From IMG/VR virus record IMGVR_UViG_3300029951_000024: DNA of 20,000 nt; one strand, given 5' to 3'. The notes beneath the pieces were generated by a model, which searched no databases, was not told where the DNA came from, and was given only the letters and a program-made list of their open reading frames with translations. Positions 1,869-13,754 of the stretch are shown in pieces. Both the position numbers and the translations under genes were made by a program. The first letter of the stretch is position 1, and every line of letters begins with the position of its first letter. This DNA comes from an uncultured virus (IMG/VR IMGVR_UViG_3300029951_000024). Taxonomy: Duplodnaviria; Heunggongvirae; Uroviricota; Caudoviricetes.

Positions 1869-2371
1869 CACGCACCTCTGCGGGCCTTGGCCCACGCTCG
1901 AATAGTTTTGGGAGTCGGCGCCAGCGTGCGAATCAGATCGACCGCGCGGGTGCAGGTCGTTACATCAAACATTCCCACATGGCATTCATCCCGGGCGATG
2001 CCCAGGTGGGCAGCGAGCCATGCGTAGGCGCGATGGCGCGCGATTCGGTAGACACGGTCCGAGACAGCGCCCTCGTAGGCGTCATGAGCGGCCTGCCACA
2101 GCGGATCGAATGCGGAGTGCACGCTCTGCTTTGCCTGGCGCAGCGCGGAGTCGGCGAGCCTGCCCAGCGGCTTCGCGGTGCCCTCATGGCATCCGACCCA
2201 TGCGCGGTCCGCAATGCACATGTAGAACGGCTTCTCCCACAGGTCCGGCCAGCGCGGATAGATTAGCTTGCCGCGCACCAGCGGCGCCGGGCATTCGCAG
2301 TAGGGACAGACGACTGACGGCCTCGCCACGATCGCCGGCGAGACCATTGAGACTTGGTGTTCCGTTACCAT
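1868..2371 (-). CDS. DUF3268-like zinc-finger protein
   Basis: CPYC...IYP...FYMC...AWVGCH.GT..PLGRLAD..LR..K...H.AFDPLW pattern. Start chosen after an AAGGA RBS. Confidence 0.8.
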
Positions 2372-2646
2372 TTGATAATCCTTTCCTTGCATAGCTCAAC
2401 TATTTGCCGGTACATCGCGCGCAGCGTCTCCAGCTCCACAAATTCCTTTTCCAGAATCTGCGTGCGCCGGTCGATCTCGTCGTGACAGGCCGAGCAAGCA
2501 TCGACGCCGAGAATGTCCGGCGGCTTGATCGACATGCCGAACCATCCGGCCTTCACGTGGGCGAGCACAACGGTTTCCCGGTTGTGATTGCACACTGGCA
2601 GCTGCACCCGGCATTCCCGGCCTTGCGCGCGCTTCCGCAGGTTCAC
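2365..2646 (-). CDS. DUF1364/YbcO-like His-Me finger putative nuclease
   Basis: LRKRAQGRECRVQLPVCNHNRETVVLAH...KPPD..G..ACSACHDEID; GTGA overlap with the upstream gene. Confidence 0.85.
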   Translation of the reverse strand: MNLRKRAQGRECRVQLPVCNHNRETVVLAHVKAGWFGMSIKPPDILGVDACSACHDEIDRRTQILEKEFVELETLRAMYRQIVELCKERIIKW

Positions 2647-3044
2647 GCCACGTCCTTCAAATACTCTTCGCCAAAGTTTTCCCTGATGGCCAGCTCCAGG
2701 GATGGCCAAATCTCTTCCCATTCATCGGCGGTCAGCTCATCGAAGGCGATCCGCTTCGGGACCTTTTCCTGGCGCCCGGCGGCGATGACCGTCTCGTAGT
2801 GCCCGGCCATGATCCGCACGAAGTAGTCAATGCACGGCTGGGAGCGCTGCGGATCCTGATTCTTGCCAATGACCCGGCAGATGCCCATGTACATGCGATG
2901 CCACTTCGGGCTACGCACGCGCTTGAGTTTGCACAGCGCGTACTCACCATCGCCCATGCGGCCAATGGTTTCCTCCGCGTCGCTGTCGGCCGGCATCAGC
3001 CCGACCTTCTCTCGCCCCGTGACCTTAACTACGCCAATGTCCAA
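2643..3044 (-). CDS. DUF1367-like phage protein
   Basis: LMPAD, VRSPKWHR, AGHY and PKRIAFDELT..EW motifs. Likely TTG start at 3044 after GGAGGT. Confidence 0.7.
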   Translation of the reverse strand: MDIGVVKVTGREKVGLMPADSDAEETIGRMGDGEYALCKLKRVRSPKWHRMYMGICRVIGKNQDPQRSQPCIDYFVRIMAGHYETVIAAGRQEKVPKRIAFDELTADEWEEIWPSLELAIRENFGEEYLKDVA

Positions 3045-3054
3045 AACTACCTCC

Positions 3055-3079
3055 AGGCAGGTGCGCCAATTGGCGCACC
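3055..3079. repeat. Copy 1 of the 23-bp element AGGCAGGTGCGCCAATTGGCGCA, with a perfect 20-bp palindrome at 3060-3079
   Basis: Read directly; 3055-3077 is identical to 10799-10821. Confidence 0.95.
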
Positions 3080-3102
3080 CTTGCCCATAAGAATGACGCG
3101 AG

Positions 3103-3789
3103 CTACGGCCGCCACCTTCGTAATCGATGTGGTGCATCCGCAAACTCTCTAACCGATAGCGCGTGCTCCAGCGCGTCAAACCATTCAGACACTTCACAAA
3201 CCATCGTATAGAGACGCTGGCACTCTCCATCGTCTAGCCCTTTGGCAATCTGTTTTGGATCTCGCTTCGCGATCGCCCGTGCCGTCTGGGCAAACATCGC
3301 TTCGCGTAACATGAATTCGTAGGCGTCGCTGTATTTTCCCTCCCGATGCTCTAAGCGTAAGTTTGTTGGCGATGGAGGAATCTCTCGCTTTACGGCATCG
3401 ATGAACTTTTTCTCGTGCAGCCGTCCGACGAAGACGGCATCGGTTGCCTGCGAAGCAGAAAGACCATTCTCGCGTAATAGCGAGGCCGGACCCGGGGATG
3501 CCTTCGTTAGCGGCTTTTTGGACCCTGGGCGCAACTCCTGCGCCAGTTCGCCCATGCGGCGATATGCGTGCAGCTTCAGGCGTTTCGCCAGAATGTCGGC
3601 ATCCTTCGAGCGATAAATCTTCGCCCACGCGGCAATGGCCTCGGCCTTGTCCGACCAGTACCGGCTTTCATCGATGCTGGTGCACGCACGCAGAGCGCAG
3701 ATAGCCTGTTCATACTCGTGTGGCAGGATCGGGGGGCGGCCGCTGCCGCTGCCCCGTGTTGCCATTGCTTGTCCAGCCTCAAGAGACAT
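3103..3789 (-). CDS. Hypothetical helical phage protein, possibly DNA-binding
   Basis: 228-aa [18 protein letters not shown]....DKAEA...RRMGEL resembles N-terminal domains recalled from phage methyltransferase fusions, but no methyltransferase motifs are present. Confidence 0.7.
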
Positions 3790-4306
3790 AGGTCACGCAG
3801 TGCGCAGCGGCCGCCAACAAGCCAAAGAGCGGCGCGATGATGAAGCCGAACGGGATGTCATCATCAAACTCGTCACGCACCGAGCCGGGGGCGTCCGTAT
3901 TGCCTGCGGCCGGTTGGCGGCCCTGCGCCTGAGAGCGCTGCTGTCGCTGCTCGCCGCCGCCTTCGTCGCCTTGCTTGCGGCTCAGCATTCGGAAGTTTTC
4001 GCAGACGATCTCCGTGGTGTAGCGGTCGGCGCCATTCTTGTCCTGCCACTTGCGAGTCTGTAGACGGCCCTGGATGTACACCAGCGAACCCTTTTCGGTG
4101 TACTGCTGCGCGACCTCAGCCGTGCGGCCGTAAATCGTGACGCTGTGCCACTCGGTTTTTTCCTTGCGGTCGCCGCTTTCCTTATCCTTCCAGGTCTCCG
4201 ACGTGGCAATGCGCAGGTTGACCACGCTGTTGCCGCTAGGAAGATTCTTCAGCTCCGGATCCTGGCCGAGTCGGCCGATCAGCTGCACCATGTTCAAGTT
4301 ACTCAA
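3779..4306 (-). CDS. ssb: Single-stranded DNA-binding protein with a C-terminal extension
   Basis: [15 protein letters not shown]...[10 protein letters not shown]...EKTEWH...[18 protein letters not shown]...DDDIPF. TTG start after GGAGG. Confidence 0.96.
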
Positions 4307-5556
4307 GGGACCTCCTGCCAATTGATATTGCGAATCCATTCGAGTGCCACGTGGGTCGGCACCAAATGCTCTGTTGCGACCAGCACCAGAATGTCGTGTG
4401 CGGTCGGTGGGTTTCCGCGCGCCAGCTCGATGCGCTCCGCCTCGGCCTGCTTGCGGGCGGCCTCCGCATCGGCCCGTCGCTGTGCCTCGGCCTGTCGATC
4501 GCGCTCAGCCTGCTCACGGCGCGCCAGTTCGTCGGCGTCGCGCTGCTGCTTCGCCAGCCGCTCACGCTCCTGCGCTTGGCGCGTCCGCTCTGCCGCCTCG
4601 CGCTGTTCGTCTTCGATGCGGCGGTCATGGGTGACCAGCGCTCCCTCGATGGCCGTGATAGACGCCGCTTTGGCAGCCTGAGCCACGGCGACCAGGGCGC
4701 CGAAGATCGCGGCATTGACCGGCCACAGCTTCGCGTTTTCGAGCGCTTGCAGGATCTGCGCACGGCTGGCACCGCGTAGCTTCTGCGGCTGCTCGGCGAT
4801 CGCGGTGATATCCCGCAACAGTTTGTCCGTGTGGGCGCGCTCTTCCGCGGCCTTGCGATCCCGCTCGGCATCCTCAGCGCGCCGGCGGTTCAGCTCGACG
4901 CGCTCGGCGGCAATACGGACCTGCTCGGCTTCGTGCGCCACGGCCGCCGCGTGTATCTCGCGCAGGCGGGCGATCGATGCCAACCGGGCGTCTTCGGCTT
5001 CTACCTGATACTCGCCGAAAGATTCATCGATGACCTCGCGCTCGATTTCACCGATGCGGTCAAGGATCGCTTCGGCGCTGCGCCCAATCGACGCGGGCAC
5101 GGCCTCGCGCATTTCGGTGATGCGCTCGCGAATCAGCCGCGTGCGCTCCAGTTCCCTTTCGATCAGCGCCTGTTTCAATGCCTCGGCACGCTGGTCGTAT
5201 TCGTCCTGTAGCTTCTGGAGTCGTTCCTCTTCGGGCTCGATGATGGCGACCAGACCGTTTTCCAAAGCGATGACGGCCTTGGACAACGCCGTCGCATCCT
5301 CGCGCGCCGTCTTGCCTGCGGCCTTGATGGCGACGCGCTCATTCTTGAGTGTGATGCGCGCCCGGTAGACCTGCTCACGGCCGTCGGCGTTGGTGATGGC
5401 GACAATGTCCTTTGTCGACTGCGCCAGCGTCTTGAGCGCGGTTTCCTTTTCTGCCGGGATGGCCAGGGCAATTACGGCACGCTCTTTGACGGTCAGCGCT
5501 ACCGCGGTCCCCGGGGAGGCGATCAGCGCCTCTACTGCTTTCGTTGCTGCGTTCAT
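4303..5556 (-). CDS. Coiled-coil phage protein of the recombination module
   Basis: 417 aa, rich in E/R/A heptads; coupled to the exonuclease and ssb by 4-bp overlaps. Confidence 0.8.
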
Positions 5557-6200
5557 GCCGCTTCCTCTCTATATGCGCGGATTTCTGCGACCCGGACCAT
5601 GACCTCGGCGAGTAGCCGGTGTACCTCGGCGCCGTAGGTCTCCATCAGCGCCTCGTCACGCAGCATCCGCTTGCGGAAAATCTGCATGTGCGCCGGATAG
5701 TCCGGATGCCAGCTGATGAAGTCGCACCACTGCGCGCCGGTGACCCACAGGTTGTGGACGCACTGGTAGTAGTACTCGGCCGGGACTACCCTGCCTTGCA
5801 GGTAGTCGAAGTGCGTTGCCTGCTTCGGCGCCTTCAGCTCCTGGATGCCCTCGAAGTTATTGACGTGGCCGTCCAGCGAGCACCCGGCCATGATCGACTC
5901 GCAGGCCAGGAACCCGGTCTTCTGCACGATCTCGCCGGTCAGCGCCTCATATGCGCAGATAATTTCGGGCTCCTTCTCTGAGCCGCGGCGCATGTCATAG
6001 GTCTGCGGGCCTTGCTCTTCCGGCCTGCCGGTGACTTGCTCCAATGCCATTGCTTGTATGACATTGCGCCGCGCCGTGGAGTAGCCGCCGCTCTTGACGC
6101 GGGCCATCATGTCTACGGCGCGGGAGCCGGTCAGGCGTCCCATGCGGGCAATGCGCCACTCGTCGCTGCGCTGCTCGCAATCAATGATTTTGAACTTCAT
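5553..6200 (-). CDS. YqaJ-like / lambda-type 5'-3' exonuclease
   Basis: EQRSDEW...R.GRLTGS, RGSEKEP, GCSLDG, ELKAP and YYYQC...LWVTG..WCDF motifs. Confidence 0.93.
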   Translation of the reverse strand: MKFKIIDCEQRSDEWRIARMGRLTGSRAVDMMARVKSGGYSTARRNVIQAMALEQVTGRPEEQGPQTYDMRRGSEKEPEIICAYEALTGEIVQKTGFLACESIMAGCSLDGHVNNFEGIQELKAPKQATHFDYLQGRVVPAEYYYQCVHNLWVTGAQWCDFISWHPDYPAHMQIFRKRMLRDEALMETYGAEVHRLLAEVMVRVAEIRAYREEAA

Positions 6201-6706
6201 GCGTATTCCCCAAAGTGTGTAACCCGGGCCGCCTGATATGCCGACGCGGCCGCGGCCGGTGTCGGGTAGGTGCCCAGGTAGATTTTCTTTTTGTTCACGG
6301 CGATGCGCGCCTCGTACCGTCCGGCGGTGCGTGCAGGGTGAACTCCCATAGGCAGGTCAGCGCGCTTGCTGCGCTTTCGCGTCTTATGGTTCCAGGCGTT
6401 CTGCGTTGGCGTTGCATCGCGCAGGTTGAGCGGCGCATCGTTCTGCGAATTGCCGTCGCGGTGATCCACGTGGCCACGCGCCCAGCGGCGGCGGGTCATG
6501 ACATAGATCAACTGCGATCGCCGATACTTGCGGCCGGCAAACTGGATGATCCAGTAGACCTTGCCGCAATGGTTCGGGGTCGGCGTCCCGGCAATCTGCC
6601 CGCGAAGGTCCGGGTGCCCCTTCGGGGGCACCGTCCAGAACAGCACGCCGTCGACGCGCATTTCGAGCGCCGCCTTGAGACTCGCGATTGTTGGGCGGCG
6701 CTTCAT
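6197..6706 (-). CDS. HNH endonuclease with C-terminal AP2 domain (putative homing endonuclease)
   Basis: VDHRDGNSQNDAPLNLRDAT..QN (HNH_3 type) followed by GV...GRYEARI..NKKKIYLGTY.T...A..AY..A....FGEYA (AP2). Confidence 0.92.
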   Translation of the reverse strand: MKRRPTIASLKAALEMRVDGVLFWTVPPKGHPDLRGQIAGTPTPNHCGKVYWIIQFAGRKYRRSQLIYVMTRRRWARGHVDHRDGNSQNDAPLNLRDATPTQNAWNHKTRKRSKRADLPMGVHPARTAGRYEARIAVNKKKIYLGTYPTPAAAASAYQAARVTHFGEYA

Positions 6707-7533
6707 TTCTGCGGCGTTCCCGTGGTGGCCGTAGCGGCGGCCGTAACCTTGTCGGCCTGCCGCTTGAGCGTGGCCCAGCGGGCGCCTTCGTGGTTGGCCA
6801 TGAACGTGCGCTTCTCCATGGGAGATTCCTTCCACGCCTTGAGCAACGGCTCCTTGCCCTCTTCGGCCTTGACCTTCAGGGCCTCGGCCCACGGCTCGTA
6901 TCCTTCCGGCGGCTGCGGGCCGCGGCGGACAGGGGTCGCAGTCCCGGCCGGCGCACCAGCAGCGCCGGTGGCAGTCGCGCGCCCTGCGCCGTTGGCGTCA
7001 TCGTCCTGGCTATACTCGCGGGCCACGACGCCGGTGATGGCCTGGAAGGTCGCGCCCTCCAGATAAGTCAGCGTCGACTTAATCATCTGAAGGTCGTTTT
7101 TCTTGCCCGTGGTATCCGGCGGCCCGGCAATGGTGACCGACTCTTTATGTCCCTCGATGTGGGACAGGATGCATGTCATCTTGATCCACGAGGGGTCCGT
7201 CTGGTCCACGCTCCAACGAGCATTCAGCCCAAACTGGCCAAGCGCAGCATTGGTGGTGTTCACCAGATTGCCCAGCGATGCATAGTCGGATCCGAACTGG
7301 TCGTTATGCAGATCCTTGACCACGGCCGGCGCGTTCTTTTTGAACTCGGCGAATGCGGTGACATAGGCGCTCTCGGCCTGCATGGCCTTGAACTCGCGCC
7401 AGATCTCCATACGGGCCTTGAACAGCTCCGGGTTGGGCTCGCGCAGGATCTCCATTTGGATCTGTTGCAATGGAGTCAGCTGCGGCGGCTCCATGCGCGT
7501 GAGGGTTGCGACTTCGTGTGCTTGTGCGTTCAT
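6703..7533 (-). CDS. erf: ERF-family ssDNA annealing protein
   Basis: YASL, CILSH..GH.ES, Q...STLTY and DDDAN motifs. Confidence 0.9.
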   Translation of the reverse strand: MNAQAHEVATLTRMEPPQLTPLQQIQMEILREPNPELFKARMEIWREFKAMQAESAYVTAFAEFKKNAPAVVKDLHNDQFGSDYASLGNLVNTTNAALGQFGLNARWSVDQTDPSWIKMTCILSHIEGHKESVTIAGPPDTTGKKNDLQMIKSTLTYLEGATFQAITGVVAREYSQDDDANGAGRATATGAAGAPAGTATPVRRGPQPPEGYEPWAEALKVKAEEGKEPLLKAWKESPMEKRTFMANHEGARWATLKRQADKVTAAATATTGTPQK

Positions 7534-7563
7534 GGACTTCCCTTTCGATGATGTGAAAATTAG

Positions 7564-7842
7564 TTAGGCCTGGAGCCGCAGGCAGTCGGGCAACTTGAAG
7601 CGCTCGCGGTACTGGCGCAGCCGGTCGCGCCATGCTTCGGCGCGGACGGGTGCCAGACGTGCGCGCTCGATGTCGGAGCCCGTTACCTGAATCCGGGTGA
7701 TCTCCAGCGGCGCCACTCGTGCGCGCTCCTTCGGATTGCGGCCAACGCGGACCGCGAAGCGCTTCTCTTCAAGGTTGTCATGCCGGCGCAGCTGCTCAGC
7801 GTTGCGCCGGTCATGGAATCGGCCGCTAAGAATGGCTGGCAT
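7564..7842 (-). CDS. Basic hypothetical protein
   Basis: 92-aa Arg-rich ORF in operon register. Confidence 0.55.
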   Translation of the reverse strand: MPAILSGRFHDRRNAEQLRRHDNLEEKRFAVRVGRNPKERARVAPLEITRIQVTGSDIERARLAPVRAEAWRDRLRQYRERFKLPDCLRLQA

Positions 7843-7843
7843 G

Positions 7844-7975
7844 TCAGAGCGCTCCTGTGTGGATGTGATGCCACAGCATCGGAGCGCCGACCCAGACGGC
7901 CCATCCCCATGCGGTCGCGACGGCGATAAAGATCGCTCCGAGTACGGCGACCTCAGTTTTTGTCCAAAGAAACAT
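7844..7975 (-). CDS. Small membrane protein
   Basis: MFLWTKTEVAVLGAIFIAVATAWGWAVWVGAPMLW; GAGGGGG RBS. Confidence 0.55.
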   Translation of the reverse strand: MFLWTKTEVAVLGAIFIAVATAWGWAVWVGAPMLWHHIHTGAL

Positions 7976-7977
7976 AG

Positions 7978-8112
7978 TTACCCCCTCGCCTTGGCGCGCC
8001 AGACATTGAAGGCATCGCAGCCGACTATCAGCGCGCACACCGCGCACCCGAACAAAAACACGTCACGCACGGCCGTAGTCCACGTGGCCGTATGGATGTA
8101 GTGAGCAATCAC
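7978..8112 (-). CDS. Small membrane protein (44 aa, below the ORF-track cutoff)
   Basis: GTG start, MIAHYIHTATWTTAVRDVFLFGCAVCALIVGCDAFNVWRAKARG. GTGA overlap upstream and a stop 2 bp before the next ATG. Confidence 0.55.
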   Translation of the reverse strand: MIAHYIHTATWTTAVRDVFLFGCAVCALIVGCDAFNVWRAKARG

Positions 8113-8405
8113 AGGTAGTCCCCCATGCGCTTAAACAAGATTGACTCCATGCCCATCTGCCGGCGCATCGTTTCGATGGCCGCGATCAGCTTCGGCATTT
8201 CGGTTTGCTCAAGGCGCTTGAGCACGAGGGTCAGGAACGCGCGCTCGGTGGCCGCGTCCAGCTGGACAACCTGCACAGTCGGAGCGGTGGGCGCGCCGGA
8301 CTTGATCTCTTCCTGAATCTCCGCGAACTCCTGCGCGAATTCATCGGTAGTCGGGACATCGCCGCGGCGCACGCGGTCGAGCATTTCTTTGATGGCTGGC
8401 GACAT
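8109..8405 (-). CDS. Hypothetical early protein
   Basis: 98-aa helical ORF with a GGGGAG RBS. Confidence 0.65.
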   Translation of the reverse strand: MSPAIKEMLDRVRRGDVPTTDEFAQEFAEIQEEIKSGAPTAPTVQVVQLDAATERAFLTLVLKRLEQTEMPKLIAAIETMRRQMGMESILFKRMGDYL

Positions 8406-8407
8406 GG

Positions 8408-8581
8408 CTACAGCTCCCCGAAGCGACTGACCCCGGCGTCATCGGCGGCGATGTCTTCGGGCTCCGGCTCGATAGGCTCGAAAGCGTGTTTGTCGGCCAG
8501 CTGGTCTAGACGCCAGCTGGGGAGCGATTCGGCAGCGGCGGGCGCCGTGCGTGTGGGTATCTGTGTCTGACTGCGTTGCAT
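8408..8581 (-). CDS. First gene of the pL-like operon, hypothetical
   Basis: AAGGAGG RBS before ATG 8581; acidic C-terminus. Confidence 0.6.
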   Translation of the reverse strand: MQRSQTQIPTRTAPAAAESLPSWRLDQLADKHAFEPIEPEPEDIAADDAGVSRFGEL

Positions 8582-8610
8582 GGTGGCCTCCTTGGCTAGC
8601 AAGGCGCCAT

Positions 8611-8650
8611 ATCAGCACACTCATTGAAGGGTGTCAATGAGTATGCTGAT
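8611..8650 (-). promoter_or_regulatory. pL/oL: two 14-bp operators flanking a TTGACA -35 box
   Basis: ATCAGCACACTCAT (8611-8624) and ATGAGTATGCTGAT (8637-8650). The minus strand reads TTGACA-N17-TGATAT. Confidence 0.85.
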
Positions 8651-8713
8651 TCAAGAAAACATATATTCCGTGTGGTCCGCTAGGAAGTCAGGGATTTACT
8701 CAGGGGAAATAGC

Positions 8714-8750
8714 AAAAAGCCCCACGCTCCGTTAGGGGCGCAGGGCTTTT
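8714..8750 (-). terminator. Intrinsic terminator after the repressor gene, possibly bidirectional
   Basis: Minus strand GCCCTGCGCCCC-TAAC-GGAGCGTGGGGC-TTTTT, with A/T tracts on both sides. Confidence 0.8.
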
Positions 8751-8775
8751 CGTCGGTCCGAGTCGGGCTGGTAGG

Positions 8776-9141
8776 TTACTTGTGCGTGCGCTGCTGCAGC
8801 TCGGCTAGCAGCTGGTCTAGGACTGAGCCGCCGGCGCGCACAGTGGTGGGCAGCCCGATGCCGTATTGCAGCCACACCGTGCGGATGCCCAGCGCGTCCG
8901 CGATTATCCCCGCATAGGAGCCTTTTTGCAGGTTATCCCTATCGTTGATGTAGTTGGTGATAGAGGTCTGCCCGGGAGCGACCCCTGGCACGCCTTGGGC
9001 GATCCGTCGGCACTCTTCTAGTAGTACCGCCTGAGTCCGGATTGTGGCATGTGAGGCGAGCACGTCCCGCAGCCGCTGATTGGCAGTCTTGCCATCAGGT
9101 CCGACAGGGAAGGGCTCCTTCTGTCGTTTCTCAGTCGCCAT
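8776..9141 (-). CDS. CI-like XRE HTH repressor, 121 aa, with no S24 peptidase domain
   Basis: NQRLR...TQAVL...GQTSITNY...IADALGIRTVWLQYGIG; divergent from the Cro-like gene across the operators. Confidence 0.8.
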   Translation of the reverse strand: MATEKRQKEPFPVGPDGKTANQRLRDVLASHATIRTQAVLLEECRRIAQGVPGVAPGQTSITNYINDRDNLQKGSYAGIIADALGIRTVWLQYGIGLPTTVRAGGSVLDQLLAELQQRTHK

Positions 9142-9177
9142 CTCAATAACTGCCGGTAAACCCAAGCGGCTCACCGT

Positions 9178-9256
9178 ATCAGTCGACTCATAGGCTGTCA
9201 CGTTTGCGTTCACTTCAGCATACTCATTGCACTGCGCATGAGTATGCTGATAGTCT
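9178..9256 (+). promoter_or_regulatory. oR/pR: three 14-bp operators and a rightward promoter
   Basis: ATCAGTCGACTCAT (9178-9191), TTCAGCATACTCAT (9214-9227) and ATGAGTATGCTGAT (9238-9251). TTGCAC-N18-TAGTCT spans 9227-9256. Confidence 0.85.
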
Positions 9257-9264
9257 CGCAGCCT

Positions 9265-9573
9265 ATGAAGACTAAACTCAAGAACATCGCACCCACCCGG
9301 GAGCCGGACCACTCTGGTGAACCGGCCCACGTTCGCGCACTCCGGGACGCTGTCGAACACGGTGGCGGGAGCCAAGTCGCGCTGTCTGAAGGCATCGCGG
9401 CGTTCATGAAGCGCCCGGCGTTCGGGCAAAGCACTATCTCGTATTGGCTGTCCGCCCAGACACTTCTCGAAGCGAAGTGGTGGCCAGCGATCGAACACTG
9501 CACTAAAGGCAGAGTTACCCGCGAACAGCTGCGTCCCGATGTTTTCGGCAAGCAGCGCCGGCGGGCGGCCTGA
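9265..9573 (+). CDS. Cro-like / YdaS-family HTH regulator
   Basis: ALRDAV..GGGSQVAL...QSTISYWL...IEHCTKGRVTREQLRPDVFG signature. Confidence 0.88.
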   Translation: MKTKLKNIAPTREPDHSGEPAHVRALRDAVEHGGGSQVALSEGIAAFMKRPAFGQSTISYWLSAQTLLEAKWWPAIEHCTKGRVTREQLRPDVFGKQRRRAA

Positions 9574-9908
9574 ATCGTGGGGGCTGGCGTGAACGGGCAG
9601 GTCATCCCACCTGCGGCCGTAGGGGCTGAGTCTTCGCTCCTGCAATTTCTTATATCCATCCGTGGCGCAGTGAGTGCGGATGCTGCGCCACAGCAGAGCA
9701 GTGCGGACCGTGCGCACGTCACAAAAGTGACAACGATTGCCATTTCAGCTGAAACACAAAACCTGTCGCGCAGCTTTCCGGCGCTGAAAACAATTCGTAG
9801 CAAGGGGGATGCGAGGCTCATGGTTGAGGATTTGAACATTTCGCAACCATGTGTGCTTGCGAGAAAGTCGCATCTAGTCGCAGCACATATTGATATCCGG
9901 TGCGCGAC

Positions 9909-10310
9909 GTGACCGTCGCTCTGCGATCACTCAATGGCGCCACTCCCGAGAGCATCTTGGAAGTGCACACGGCCCTTATAGATCGGCTCGGCCGCAAGTT
10001 TGTCGCGAACAAACTCTGGCCGCACAAGGATATCGGCAGCGCCACACGCTACCTCTCCGATTGCCTCAATCCGAATCGCGAGCACTGCATCGGTGTTGAG
10101 CGCAGCCACCAGCTCAAGAAGCTCGCCGCAGAGCGCGGAATTCACAGCGCATTTGAATGGGAGGCCATCGACCTGGGCTATTCGGCTCCCGTCTATATAG
10201 AGGTGGATCCCATCAAGGCGGAACTCCGCCGCAGGCTCGATGACGCAGAACGCACGGTGGCGGAACTGCGTAACCAACTCACAGAAACACTCTCGGTACT
10301 AACGCGATGA
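9909..10310 (+). CDS. Putative CII-like regulator
   Basis: Position after cro; ESI...G.K.VA..LWP.K...A...LSDCLNPNR...GY..P pattern; C-terminal coiled coil. Confidence 0.55.
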   Translation: MTVALRSLNGATPESILEVHTALIDRLGRKFVANKLWPHKDIGSATRYLSDCLNPNREHCIGVERSHQLKKLAAERGIHSAFEWEAIDLGYSAPVYIEVDPIKAELRRRLDDAERTVAELRNQLTETLSVLTR

Positions 10311-10495
10311 AAGACCGCGACCCATCAATCGAATTGCCGCCGCGCATCTCGCGTTGCCGCTGCATCGGTCCGCACTGCGCAGGGTGCGGCTCACATTTCA
10401 AACCGCACCCGACGCAGCCGCAGTACTGCGCCGAGTGCATTTCCTGGGGAAACAATCCTATGACCGCAGACACGCAGGGCGCCGGAGCGCCATGA
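10307..10495 (+). CDS. Small Zn-finger protein
   Basis: CAGCGSHF...YCAEC; ATGA overlaps at both ends. Confidence 0.6.
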   Translation: MKDRDPSIELPPRISRCRCIGPHCAGCGSHFKPHPTQPQYCAECISWGNNPMTADTQGAGAP

Positions 10496-11310
10496 AGTTT
10501 CATCGCTATTCGGAGATATTCCCGCTGATCGAAGGACAGGCCTTCGATGACTTGGTGCTCGACATCAAGATGAACGGGCAGAAGGAAAAAATCTGGCTGT
10601 ATGAGGGGAAGATCCTCGACGGTCGCAACCGCTACCTCGCGTGCCAGCGCGCGAAGGTGAAGCCGCAGACGAAGACCTACCACGGCAAAGAGCCGCTGAA
10701 ATTCGTGCTGTCGCTCAACATGCATCGTCGGCACTTGAATGAGAGCCAGCGCGCCATGGTGGCCGCTCGCCTCACGCAGATTGAGGCTGAAGACCGCAAG
10801 GCAGGTGCGCCAATTGGCGCAGGTGCTCTGTCTCAGTCCGATGCCGCCACCACCATGAATGTCGGCCGCCGCTCAGTGCAGCGGGCGGCGCAGGTGCAGG
10901 AAAAAGGCAGCAAGCAGCTTCAGGACGCCGTCGACGCCGGCGAGCTGTCGGTATCGAAAGCCGCCGCAGTACTCGACCGCCCCAAGGGTCAGCAGCTGGC
11001 GGCCGCGAAGGAGCCTACGCCAGCGCCGGAGGCTCCGAATCTCAACGAGGGATGGGTGCCTGAGCACGACGAGGATGCGTACCTCGCGGGACTGGAGAAG
11101 GAATACGCCGCATCGATCGATCGGATCATGGGCGCCGACGACAAGTTGAAGGCGGCCCACGAAGAGCTGAAGCGGCAAGCGGCTCAGATCGCGCAGCTGA
11201 AACTATCCCGCGATGGTTTCCAGAATGAACGTCTCGAGGCCATCCGGCTGGTCAAGCAGCTGCGCCGCGAGAACGACGGTCTCAAACGCAAACTCGACAA
11301 GGCGGCTTAA
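10492..11310 (+). CDS. ParB/Srx-like N-terminal domain protein with HTH and coiled coil
   Basis: IFPLI...LVLDIK.NG....I.L..GKILDGRNRYLAC, SLNMHRRHLNESQRA and HTH LSQSDAATTMNVGRRSVQRA. Confidence 0.85.
   Translation: MKFHRYSEIFPLIEGQAFDDLVLDIKMNGQKEKIWLYEGKILDGRNRYLACQRAKVKPQTKTYHGKEPLKFVLSLNMHRRHLNESQRAMVAARLTQIEAEDRKAGAPIGAGALSQSDAATTMNVGRRSVQRAAQVQEKGSKQLQDAVDAGELSVSKAAAVLDRPKGQQLAAAKEPTPAPEAPNLNEGWVPEHDEDAYLAGLEKEYAASIDRIMGADDKLKAAHEELKRQAAQIAQLKLSRDGFQNERLEAIRLVKQLRRENDGLKRKLDKAA
10799..10821. repeat. Copy 2 of the 23-bp element, with the perfect 16-bp palindrome TGCGCCAATTGGCGCA at 10806-10821
   Basis: Read directly; encodes AGAPIGA immediately before the HTH. Confidence 0.95.
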
Positions 11311-11313
11311 CCC

Positions 11314-12891
11314 ATGGAAAGCCAGCATCTGTTTCTGCCGGCCACCAGTGCCAACTACTCCAGCACCAGCTTCCCGTCGCCGCGTGACTTCCAGGTCACC
11401 GCGCACGAGAAGCTGCGTGACGGCGTACGCAACAAGCACCGCAAGCAGCTGCTGGTGGCGCCCACGGGCTCAGGCAAGACATACCTGGGCCTGCGGGCGT
11501 CGCATGAGGCATTGATTAAGGGGCGCCGTGCGCTGTTCGTCTGTGACCGCACTGCGCTGATCGACCAAACTAGCAAGCGTGCCGATGAGTACGGGCTCAC
11601 GGCACACGGCATCGTCCAGGCGAATCACTGGCGGCGCGACAAGTCGCAGCCGTTCCAGATCGCCAGCATCCAGACCATCGGCGCCCGCGGCTTCTGGCCC
11701 GATGCCGATGTCATCATCATCGATGAGGCTCACACGCAGTACAGCACCTGGGTGGAGCATCTGAAGACCACCAAGGCGGCCGTCATCGGGCTGACCGCCA
11801 CGCCGTGCTCGAAGGGCCTTGGGCATAGCTTCTCGAACATGGTCAATGCAGCGACCATGAATGAACTGACCCTGGCGGGCGTGCTGGTCCCAATGCGGAT
11901 CATGTCGTGCACGAAGCCCGACATGGCCGGCGCGCAGACCAATAGCGTCGGGGAGTGGACCGAGAAGGCCGCATCGCAGCGTGAGGCGATGATCCTCGGG
12001 GATGTGGTCTCCGAATGGAGCAACTACGCTGCCGACATCCGCAAGACGATCGCCTTCGGTCCGGACATCGCCTACTGCCACCAGCTCGCGCAGCGCTTCA
12101 ATGAGGCGGGCATCCCGGCTGATGTGTTCACGTCAGAGACCAAGCCCGCCGAGCGGGAGTATCTGCTGGCGGAGTACAGCAAGCCGAATCCAAAGATGCG
12201 CGTGCTGGTCAGCGTGGAGGCCTTAGCGAAGGGCTTCGACGTGCCGGACATCGGGTGCGTCATTGATGCGCGGCCGCTGCGCAAGTCGCTGTCCACCGCG
12301 ATCCAGATGTGGGGCCGTGGCCTGCGGTCATCGCCCGACACCGGCAAGACCGAGTGCCTGCTGCTAGACCACAGCGGCAACATCCAGCGGTTCTACAAAG
12401 ACTTCATCGACGTGTACTTCAATGGCTTCCATAGCCTCGACATGGCTGAGCAGCTGGACGGCAAGGTCCGCAAGGATGATGAGGAATTCGAGCCGGCCGG
12501 GTGCCCGACGTGCGGCCACAAGCCGTTCCTGCGCCGCTGCATGGCCTGTGGCTATGAAAAGCCCACCATGGTCTTCGAGGACTCCAAGGCCGGCGAAATG
12601 CGGGAAATACGCATCGGCAAGAACGTCATCGCATCCGACCAGGTCAATCTATGGCAGCAGCTGTGCGCATACGTGCGCGGCCACGGCAACCCGGACAATC
12701 AGAGCAACCGAGCCCGGGCGATCTTCAAAGACATCACCGGGGACTGGCCGACTCGCGACTGGAGTTTCAGCGCAACCGAAAATGCGCCCATCAGTCACGG
12801 GACGCTGAGCAAGATCAAGTCGCTCAACCTGCGGTTTCGCAAGGGGAATGAGAAGAAGGCGCGGCTCGCGGCGGAGGCTCGCGCTTCGTGA
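11314..12891 (+). CDS. SF2 DEAH-box helicase (RadD/YejH-like) with C-terminal Zn finger
   Basis: APTGSGKT, IIDEAH, GLTATP, GFDVP, QMWGRGLR and CPTC...CMAC motifs. Confidence 0.95.
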   Translation: MESQHLFLPATSANYSSTSFPSPRDFQVTAHEKLRDGVRNKHRKQLLVAPTGSGKTYLGLRASHEALIKGRRALFVCDRTALIDQTSKRADEYGLTAHGIVQANHWRRDKSQPFQIASIQTIGARGFWPDADVIIIDEAHTQYSTWVEHLKTTKAAVIGLTATPCSKGLGHSFSNMVNAATMNELTLAGVLVPMRIMSCTKPDMAGAQTNSVGEWTEKAASQREAMILGDVVSEWSNYAADIRKTIAFGPDIAYCHQLAQRFNEAGIPADVFTSETKPAEREYLLAEYSKPNPKMRVLVSVEALAKGFDVPDIGCVIDARPLRKSLSTAIQMWGRGLRSSPDTGKTECLLLDHSGNIQRFYKDFIDVYFNGFHSLDMAEQLDGKVRKDDEEFEPAGCPTCGHKPFLRRCMACGYEKPTMVFEDSKAGEMREIRIGKNVIASDQVNLWQQLCAYVRGHGNPDNQSNRARAIFKDITGDWPTRDWSFSATENAPISHGTLSKIKSLNLRFRKGNEKKARLAAEARAS

Positions 12892-13754
12892 CACTGGCGG
12901 AGACTCTGGCCACGTTCGGCATGACGCCGCCGCGGCATTTCCCAATCGGGCGCTTCGTGCGATTCCCCGGCGCTGGCAAGGGCCAGGGGAACAAGGCCGG
13001 CTGGGCGAAGCTCTTCACGCCGGACGTTGCGGTGTGGGGGGACTTCTCCAGCGGCCAGGGCGAGGCAAACGTGTGGACCAGCGATCGGCACGTAGACCCT
13101 GCCGAGGCAGCTCGCGTCCTTCGCGAAGCGCGCGAGCAAATGCGTCGCGCTGCCCAAGCGACGCGACGGGATCAAGAGAAGGTTGCCCGCGCGGCCAGTC
13201 AGCTGATTGCCGGCTCGAAGCTCTCAAGTCATGCCTATCTGGTCAAGAAGGGGTTCCCGGACCTCAGAGCGCTGGTGAGCGGCACGAACCTGATCGTTCC
13301 GATGCGCGACGTGGCGGACTATTCGCGCGTGCTGTCGGTGCAGACGATCTCAGAGGCCGGCGAGAAGTTGTTCCTGAGAGGCGGCCGCACGGCTGGCGCC
13401 GTCTTCCGCATGGGCGCCACGGAGAAGGCAGCGGACCGCAGCGTGCTGTGCGAGGGATACGCCACTGGCTTGACGCTCATTGAAGCCCTGCAGCGCCTGA
13501 GAGGGCGCCCGACAGTGATTGTGTGCTTCAGCGCAGCGAACCTCGAACGGGTCGCCAAGCATTTCCCTGGCGCCTTCGTGGCGGCCGACAACGATCACCC
13601 AAATAAGCTGACCGGCGTTAAGGCCGGCGAGGCAGCGGCGATCGCCACCGGACTCAAATGGTCGATGCCACCGACGATCGGCACCGACTTCAACGACATG
13701 CACCAGTCAGAAGGCATTCACGCAGTGGTGGAGGTTCTACGCACGGCCTTTTAA
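12888..13754 (+). CDS. Toprim-domain DNA primase-like protein
   Basis: LCEGYATG, FSAANL, AADND and GTDFND motifs; GTGA overlap with the helicase. Confidence 0.9.
   Translation: MTLAETLATFGMTPPRHFPIGRFVRFPGAGKGQGNKAGWAKLFTPDVAVWGDFSSGQGEANVWTSDRHVDPAEAARVLREAREQMRRAAQATRRDQEKVARAASQLIAGSKLSSHAYLVKKGFPDLRALVSGTNLIVPMRDVADYSRVLSVQTISEAGEKLFLRGGRTAGAVFRMGATEKAADRSVLCEGYATGLTLIEALQRLRGRPTVIVCFSAANLERVAKHFPGAFVAADNDHPNKLTGVKAGEAAAIATGLKWSMPPTIGTDFNDMHQSEGIHAVVEVLRTAF

Follow-up and report, generated by a model that had tools for sequence, protein, structure and literature searches.

Why would a phage carry a palindrome inside the coding sequence of a ParB-like gene, and an identical copy of it in a distant intergenic gap? 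The question was raised by a stretch of 20,000 nucleotides (hereafter, the window) from the uncultured Caudoviricetes virus IMGVR_UViG_3300029951_000024, which forms the final 20 kb of a temperate phage genome (G000), complete at 70.7 kb, that encodes an integrase, CI/Cro-like genes and a contractile tail. The ends of the record (G000:C1:1-186 and 70517-70702) overlap by ~186 nt with a small internal difference, and the genome is therefore circularly complete, though classed as linear. A 23-bp element, AGGCAGGTGCGCCAATTGGCGCA, occurs at 3055-3077 (copy 1) and again at 10799-10821 (copy 2), and a first-pass annotation had read the two as a pair of parS-like operators through which an orphan ParB-like protein would control its own gene and silence the distal left arm. 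We argue here that copy 2 is very probably the docking site of the protein in whose gene it lies (the reader), and that the docked reader would recruit the helicase of the adjacent gene to initiate replication of the phage, a reading to which we give a probability of about 0.55.

The in-gene palindrome and its probable ParB-like reader

Both the repeat and its palindromes proved to be as first described, identical over 23 bp and perfect over 20 bp in copy 1 and 16 bp in copy 2 (Table 1). Copy 2 lies within the ParB-like coding sequence and codes for the linker AGAPIGA (residues 104-110 of 272 aa), while copy 1, adjoining a GGAGG, lies within the 58 bp (3045-3102) that separate a TAG stop from a TTG start. 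The gene downstream of copy 1, labelled DUF1367-like in the first reading, does match that family, but more weakly (E 0.002) than NinB/Orf (phrog_319, E 3.4e-8). When the 70.7-kb genome was simulated 20 times under an order-4 Markov model, the longest direct repeat was 16-21 nt and never 23; allowing up to 3 mismatches, shuffles of the window predicted 0.30 matches, where the window itself has 3, including 2 exact ones.

Pfam and NCBIfam scans of the reader returned no family match and a sequence search of solved structures no match either, so that its fold was assigned from predicted structure. The AlphaFold model (pLDDT 90, 90-row alignment) comprises a ParB-type N-domain, a helix-turn-helix (HTH), an acidic linker and a 55-residue helix. 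Spo0J, ParB, KorB and Noc occupy the top Foldseek ranks (E 7e-6 to 7e-4), the closest structural match of the N-domain being KorB 8qa8 (VIA, Z 10.0, root-mean-square deviation 2.1 over 78 residues), and hhalign gave 90.4% (E 1.4e-6) against chromosomal ParB. Alignment with five chromosomal ParB proteins places the palindrome-coded linker as an insertion. The GxxR (Box II) arginine is present (G44-R45-N46-R47) and invariant in 90/90 alignment rows, DGRNR standing at the GERR/GxxR position, LNMHRRHL at that of ENxxR, and E32 opposite the Box I Gln of ParB. No AAA_31/ParA match was obtained in the complete G000 genome at E up to 1, which extends to the whole phage the earlier remark that no parA is visible in the window, and the ParA-binding motif (L/F/I)G(K/R)G(L/F/I) given in PMC12704722 is absent from the reader. 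With a fold matching ParB, Noc and KorB in a genome without a ParA match, the protein was rightly called an orphan ParB-fold/HTH protein; many such phage members are without an assigned role (PMC12704722).

A single-sequence search for related loci matched G000 itself alone. A gene-first survey retrieved 230 loci, of which 175 carried the N-domain and the HTH in one frame and 141 were left after removing rows >90% alike. A perfect linker palindrome of at least 12 bp stands just before the HTH in 103 of these 141 homologues, where windows of equal length in other parts of these genes predict 2.0 and synonymous recoding gives a mean of 8.9 and a maximum of 15; at least 6 of 7 positions pair in the linkers of 124/141. 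The palindromic pre-HTH DNA that the first-pass annotation proposed to look for in homologues is thus there, and the linkers PIGA, SIEA, SRDA, PRGA, QICA, TARA, ANLP, ANLH, GKFA and SIDP are readings of different palindromes.

Co-variation of half-site and recognition helix

If the reader binds its palindrome, the bases of the site should follow the residues of the recognition helix. Among 113 non-redundant genes with a perfect site (103 gene-first and 10 pattern-first), Arg131 accompanies a C at half-site position 3 in 59/59 cases and any other base in 0/54. GC at positions 5-4 goes with R127 in 74/76, the best partners of positions 6 and 7 are residues 130 and 126, and the central four bases of the palindrome show no association with the helix. 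Reader R126 aligns with R173 of Caulobacter ParB, a parS-contacting specificity residue that bonds a parS guanine (PMC7383237). In a FastTree phylogeny built from the N-domain only (112 rows), site and helix traits change 26-36 times, and independent pairs on supported branches agree in 6/6, 7.9/8 and 7.2/8 cases, position 7 in just 4.5/8; two mismatched base/residue controls disagree in the same test.

The sister type of site gave the converse pattern. A pattern-first search with the sister 16-mer TGCGCAAATTTGCGCA recovered 110 loci, 26 of them in a reader gene and 25 with the HTH, none of which (0/25) has Arg131, in rows that are redundant and partly overlap the training set. At the peptide level, 120 protein homologues include Arg131 in 80/80 of the C-type and 2/26 of the A-type, with 14 unclassified, and the two A-type exceptions (P0020, P0115) resemble mis-captures of an upstream ANLH/ANLP. 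The co-variation that the first-pass annotation had suggested seeking is strong but indirect evidence of direct read-out, and points to an HTH that reads a 14-16 bp palindrome. Very probably, a dimer reads each half-site TGCGCCAA through R126, R127, Q130 and R131.

Could the palindrome instead go unread by the protein, as an RNA hairpin, a hot spot for cassette-exchange recombination or a host repeat, with site and helix co-varying by linkage? The two lie tens of bases apart and are co-inherited, copy 1 is predicted to fold as a stable mRNA hairpin (z -4.2, as for any perfect palindrome), and the dispersed sites of three relatives (G009, G011 and G012) mismatch their resident reader. However, linkage alone does not yield a one-base-one-residue map confined to the recognition helix and accompanied by failing cross controls; the traits change repeatedly on the N-domain tree, and G000 has a single reader of this ParB-like family. 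The abundant REP-like host repeat that the first-pass annotation had kept in mind was likewise not encountered in the genomes searched: the 14-mer occurs in 35 of 301 sampled bacterial genomes of one class (one of them, G385, unpublished), in 28 of the 35 as a single copy and at most six times. We regard this explanation as highly improbable.

Two relatives deserve mention for their sites. The in-gene site of G011 (L208, near 43880), TGCTTCACGTGAAGCA, is two changes from the chromosomal parS consensus, and cross-talk with a host ParB is possible. In G394 (L586; G394:C1:5565-6466), repeated fragments of a broken reader gene hold at least five different palindromes, of the C-type, the sister type and TGCAAATTTGCA with variants, an arrangement resembling an array of spare address cassettes.

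Dispersed copies and the silencing model

Rather than the proposed pair, G000 contains a nine-site set, made of five exact TGCGCCAATTGGCGCA 16-mers (genome positions 2228, 14663, 37088, 53764 for copy 1 and 61508 for copy 2) and four sister 14-mers GCGCAAATTTGCGC (613, 22264, 37316 and 45663). All 9/9 GCNAATTNGC 10-mers of the genome extend to perfect palindromes of this set, a single further place lies within 2 mismatches, and no hybrid C/A site was found in a genome-wide palindrome scan. The 23-bp identity is not peculiar to copy 1 either, the copy at 2228 having a different 23 bp in common with copy 2. Of the eight extra copies, one follows the tRNA cluster, one precedes the small terminase, one each comes after the major capsid and the tail tube genes, two adjoin an HTH gene and a methyltransferase, one lies in the 3' end of a gene, and the last is copy 1, the only one of the eight inside the window; three of them fall in gaps of the late head and tail operon. 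Copy 1 is likely one of several extra docking sites spread round the genome. A non-Arg131 allele would suit the four GCGCAAATTTGCGC copies, which are somewhat more probably leftovers of an earlier reader than secondary sites; no second reader of the ParB-like family, including one for the sister palindrome, was found in G000.

Some of these places have features of their own. The sister palindrome after the tRNA-Asn, -Tyr and -Leu cluster (L002:287-603) begins 10 nt past tRNA-Leu, and a PAPS-reductase-like gene with a small unknown gene (L002:973-2069), possibly a DNA-modification pair, directly precedes the small terminase. A stand-alone DUF3560-methyltransferase gene (L004:3730-5484, minus strand) is followed by an HTH gene, and downstream of it a C-type and a sister palindrome lie 227 bp apart with a common CCCAAGG flank. 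One bacterial genome holds six GCGCAAATTTGCGC copies within 5.3 kb (G145:C1:583812-589061).

Across IMG/VR, the TGCGCCAATTGGCGCA 16-mer was located at 109 loci, with two or more copies in 18 contigs. A reader gene is present in 13 of these 18, including all 10 that are at least 76% complete, the five without one being 13-59% complete; among 20 single-copy contigs taken, four encode a reader, each with the site inside the gene. In the 13 multi-copy reader contigs, the same core stands in the gene in eight and a one-mismatch version in one (G010), while G006 has lost the in-gene palindrome, with an unchanged helix and four dispersed copies kept. The sister-allele phages G390, G391 and G393 have sister-type copies. 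Seen from the gene, dispersal is less common: in 16 whole gene-first contigs with a perfect site (four further contigs had none and were left out), an extra exact 12-mer occurs in three, with 5 copies against 0.1 for other site types, and 13/16 have no second copy. Of the six helicase-coupled relatives whose contig is whole and whose in-gene site is perfect, none (0/6) has a second copy. The expectation that the palindrome recurs elsewhere in each genome did not hold, and a general rule of dispersed sites was rejected; dispersed copies are real but optional.

These counts bear directly on the model of the first-pass annotation, in which a KorB-like clamp at copy 1 would roadblock, loop or silence the left arm (NinB-like, csrA, xis and int). 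KorB, the closest structural match of the N-domain, is described as silencing at a distance from its OB sites (PMC11790492); the 20-bp palindrome of copy 1 is perfect and stands 5 nt from the ribosome-binding site; and 27 of 48 dispersed copies in 14 genomes are intergenic, against ~9% of non-coding DNA. Such an enrichment is nevertheless what coding constraint alone predicts, and the other 21 copies lie inside genes (called by a simple codon model). Copy 1 is only one of eight extra sites, three of which sit in late operon gaps, and the 0/6 result concerns orthologues with the same coiled coil. A scan for sigma-70-like promoters gave no match in 2000-12000, and misses the cI/cro promoters as well. 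We consider the two-site silencing circuit quite improbable.

The same copies could reflect a ParA-independent clamp of the Noc/BisD kind, loaded at even sites over the replicating circle for compaction, protection or delivery of partner enzymes, the stand-alone methyltransferase for instance, with the helicase in a secondary role. Spacing is indeed more even than random, both in G000 (coefficient of variation 0.36, p 0.033) and over 10 genomes picked for having several copies (Fisher p 8e-4), although three of the ten give no sign of this (p 0.27-0.79). Long-form relatives commonly have dispersed sets, the separate methyltransferase of G000 adjoins two sites, and BisD is described as loading at two bisS sites and spreading over ~50 kb (PMC12409273). 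Against this, most relatives have no dispersed copies, nor do any of the six coiled-coil orthologue contigs with a perfect site. As a general account, this is rather improbable; it may well apply to the extra copies of G000, without explaining the in-gene copy.

Coupling to a helicase and the proposed role

What, then, would a reader docked in its own gene do? The gene order cI-cro-cII-[reader]-helicase-primase places it in the lambda O slot (Table 1), a context that points to replication rather than to a CI/Cro-independent repressor. An SF2 helicase directly follows the reader in 11/11 full-length viral orthologues, with a primase-like gene next where checked. Conversely, a helicase-first census was taken of the best 80 of 286 loci, this phage included, of which three had too little upstream DNA and 77 were evaluable (67 non-redundant). 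A coiled-coil gene lies upstream of the SF2 helicase in 77/77, directly adjacent in 75, an earlier round having given 22/22. The fronts of these coiled-coil genes are ParB-like in 63 cases (several subfamilies), DUF3102 in nine and of other kinds in five, three or four of which resemble the window ORF at 3103-3789 (phrog_33995). A perfect palindrome of their own, with arms of at least 8 bp, is carried by 36/67 non-redundant coiled-coil genes against a recoded mean of 3.8. No other known initiator family was detected among the 107 G000 open reading frames (ORFs) scanned, and the cultured Acidovorax phage AP1 has the same three-gene module with a near-perfect in-gene palindrome. In 7/7 coiled-coil genomes, the GC-skew minimum falls 1.1-4.6 kb from the site; in long-form genomes its median distance is 9.5 kb, and it lies within 1.1-4.6 kb in just 4/16.

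Table 1. Coordinates of the two palindrome copies, the domains of the reader and the surrounding genes in the window.
Feature	Position	Strand	Remarks
NinB/Orf (DUF1367-like) gene	2643..3044	-	Starts 10 nt downstream of copy 1; TTG, GGAGG
Copy 1	3055..3077		23-bp repeat; 20-bp perfect palindrome 3060-3079; one of 8 extra sites
228-aa ORF, phrog_33995	3103..3789	-	Ends just upstream of copy 1
CI-like repressor	8776..9150	-	phrog_4, weak; start not fixed
Cro-like gene	9238..9573	+	YdaS/phrog_35
Gene in cII position	9900..10310	+	phrog_24214 (function not assigned); cII label by position alone
ParB-like reader gene, 272 aa	10492..11310	+	N-domain, palindrome-coded linker, HTH, acidic linker, coiled coil
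ParB N-terminal NTP-binding-fold domain	10492..10779	+	Residues 1-96; structural match to KorB
Copy 2, in-gene site	10799..10821		Core TGCGCCAATTGGCGCA 10806-10821; AGAPIGA linker; insertion relative to canonical ParB
HTH	10831..10905	+	R126, R127, Q130 and R131 co-vary with half-site positions 7, 5-4, 6 and 3
Acidic stretch and C-terminal coiled coil	11071..11307	+	Putative dimerisation and helicase-binding part
SF2 helicase (ResIII/Helicase_C)	11314..12891	+	Best NCBIfam model RadD, far below cut-off
Toprim primase-like gene	12888..13754	+	Overlaps helicase stop

We propose that the reader docks at the palindrome inside its own gene and that its C-terminal coiled coil would then bring in the neighbouring SF2 helicase, leading to the start of phage replication. 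By analogy with the lambda iterons inside O, the in-gene site would mark the origin, which we hold to be slightly favoured by the evidence, as is the recruitment itself. Because address and reader are only ~50 bp apart in one gene, they could be swapped as a cassette, so that each phage would target its own DNA.

How a single site might suffice is a further matter. The chances are about even that the N-domain binds an NTP and closes into a sliding clamp, in which case one site would do where lambda needs an iteron array. Phage ParB-CTPase folds are described as binding varied NTPs (PMC12704722). The complete scheme, a nucleotide-gated ParB-type clamp that loads at the single in-gene palindrome, slides and delivers the SF2 helicase by its coiled coil, is tentative. 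Were it true, it would define a new class of replication initiator in a widespread phage family, carried as a cassette that has a readable four-residue code and serves methyltransferase delivery in other phages; the family would also amount to a natural library of orthogonal pairs of clamp and site.

Several observations weigh against a replicative role or against parts of it. The acidic residues of GERR and ENxxR, two glutamates that are catalytic in ParB, are replaced in the reader by R45 and L75, which makes ParB-like CTP hydrolysis doubtful. A perfect 12-bp linker palindrome is missing from 38/141 homologues, and the segment that follows the HTH is a methyltransferase, not a coiled coil, in 50 of 79 viral homologues, so that the front end is not replication-specific. 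In G009, G011 and G012, the in-gene site is of another type and two dispersed TGCGCCAATTGGCGCA copies persist, and the four extra exact copies of G000 would be superfluous for a unique origin. At the in-gene site there is neither an AT-rich unwinding tract (local GC 0.64-0.68, and not among the 10 lowest-GC windows) nor a tandem iteron array, but one palindrome. The cI/cro transcription switch lies 1-2 kb away and confounds the skew result, and in G000 the skew maximum does not stand opposite the minimum. In Fels-1 and PS-1, the distant helicase-primase units in the same slot (31-35% identity) have no upstream reader gene, so not every such module requires the reader, and the ParB-like gene before the LE1 helicase has no coiled-coil match and no palindrome. 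This LE1 gene did not turn out to be the characterised replicator of LE1, as had been considered, but a distinct gene that precedes a helicase.

Another possibility is that the reader binds its palindrome and only regulates its own operon, by a mid-gene block or tuning of helicase and primase transcription, with dispersed copies titrating it. The site stands in the early rightward operon just upstream of these two genes, it is the sole copy in the 13 gene-first contigs mentioned above, and the same front is fused to methyltransferases, whose level may need limiting. This leaves unexplained why the coiled coil is kept with the helicase at every evaluable locus of the census (77/77 among the best 80 of 286) when fronts are exchanged among unrelated families, and an operator 300 bp inside a gene would be in an unusual position. 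We therefore think it unlikely, and prefer the replicative role; of the earlier claim that the ParB-like gene carries its own operator, the likely binding site is supported and a dedicated two-site silencing circuit is not.

The exchanged fronts and fused partners are of interest in themselves. A DUF3102 front replaces the ParB front at L676, L677, L679, L680, L683, L686, L696, L735 and L740, and several of these genes have their own 24-30 bp palindrome right after the domain, which suggests that DUF3102 is a self-targeting DNA-binding domain; its coupling to the coiled coil and helicase is a first functional lead for this family. The window ORF at 3103-3789 (minus strand) is a stand-alone member of a family that fronts coiled-coil proteins in L697, L739 and L745, and no clear in-gene palindrome was seen in it. 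Methyltransferase-fused readers (L124-L191) are often followed by an ORF of 140-200 aa, nuclease-like by eye, and one phage has two reader-methyltransferase genes within 4 kb (G047:C1:51246-55400). Elsewhere in the left arm, the window holds a phage-borne CsrA homologue (1653-1895) and an HNH-AP2 gene (6197-6700), both on the minus strand.

Since each gene states its own likely target, more than 100 natural protein-site pairs provide a recognition code testable without any screen. The link between coiled coil and SF2 helicase supplies a candidate origin and initiator for temperate phages in which a helicase-primase unit replaces lambda O and P, and the AP1 module makes the model testable in a cultured phage. 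Searches of mostly open literature retrieved no account of palindromes inside phage ParB-like genes, of their code or of the coiled-coil/helicase link.

Among known systems, ParB-fold proteins serve as clamps in segregation, as repressors and as activators. Phages commonly encode orphan ParB folds, which fuse to methyltransferases (PMC12704722) or can activate partner enzymes such as T-dioxygenases (PMC13229309). The available text of these two reports describes no in-gene site, recognition code or helicase-coupled coiled coil, and the string "palindrom" appears nowhere in the main text of the former, a survey of phage ParB folds. With ParB-parS and Noc-NBS, the reader shares the ParB-CTPase fold and HTH, the 16-bp palindrome and the R126/R173 alignment (PMC7383237), and a site inside its own gene has a precedent in parS-359 of Bacillus subtilis parB (PMC4442127). 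It is nonetheless outside the ParABS class, having no parA, no ParA-binding motif and replaced acidic residues (GERR to GRNR, ENxxR to LNxxR); unlike parS, its site varies from phage to phage along with the helix and is coded in a linker inserted before the HTH, and a long coiled coil replaces the ParB C-terminal domain. KorB/OB of plasmid RK2 resembles it in N-domain structure and in a 16-bp site with several dispersed copies (PMC11790492), but the phage copies give no evidence of promoter placement and are optional, and the reader gene is tied to a helicase. BisD-bisS of ICEclc is likewise an orphan clamp of the ParB-like kind, carried by a mobile element and equipped with sites of its own and an extra effector domain (PMC12409273); BisD is described as activating transcription with BisC, whereas the added part of the reader is a helicase-linked coiled coil, or a methyltransferase in relatives. 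In the Eru1 unit of Stx phages, O and P give way to an SF2 DEAD/DEAH helicase and a Toprim protein, a likeness by gene content to the helicase and Toprim genes found here in the O-P slot, and the available text describes no origin-binding protein for Eru1 (PMC8044961). The lambda origin lies mid-O gene, and as with O and ori-lambda, the reader gene stands between the cI/cro/cII region and the helicase function, with a mid-gene binding site translated as a linker (PMC7466680). The reader differs from O in having no O homology (no Pfam family) and a ParB fold, one palindrome instead of 4-6 iterons, no AT-rich tract, and an SF2 helicase as partner in place of P/DnaB. Outside both ParABS and the O family, it is most likely a protein of the ParB/KorB type at its site and like lambda O in its job.

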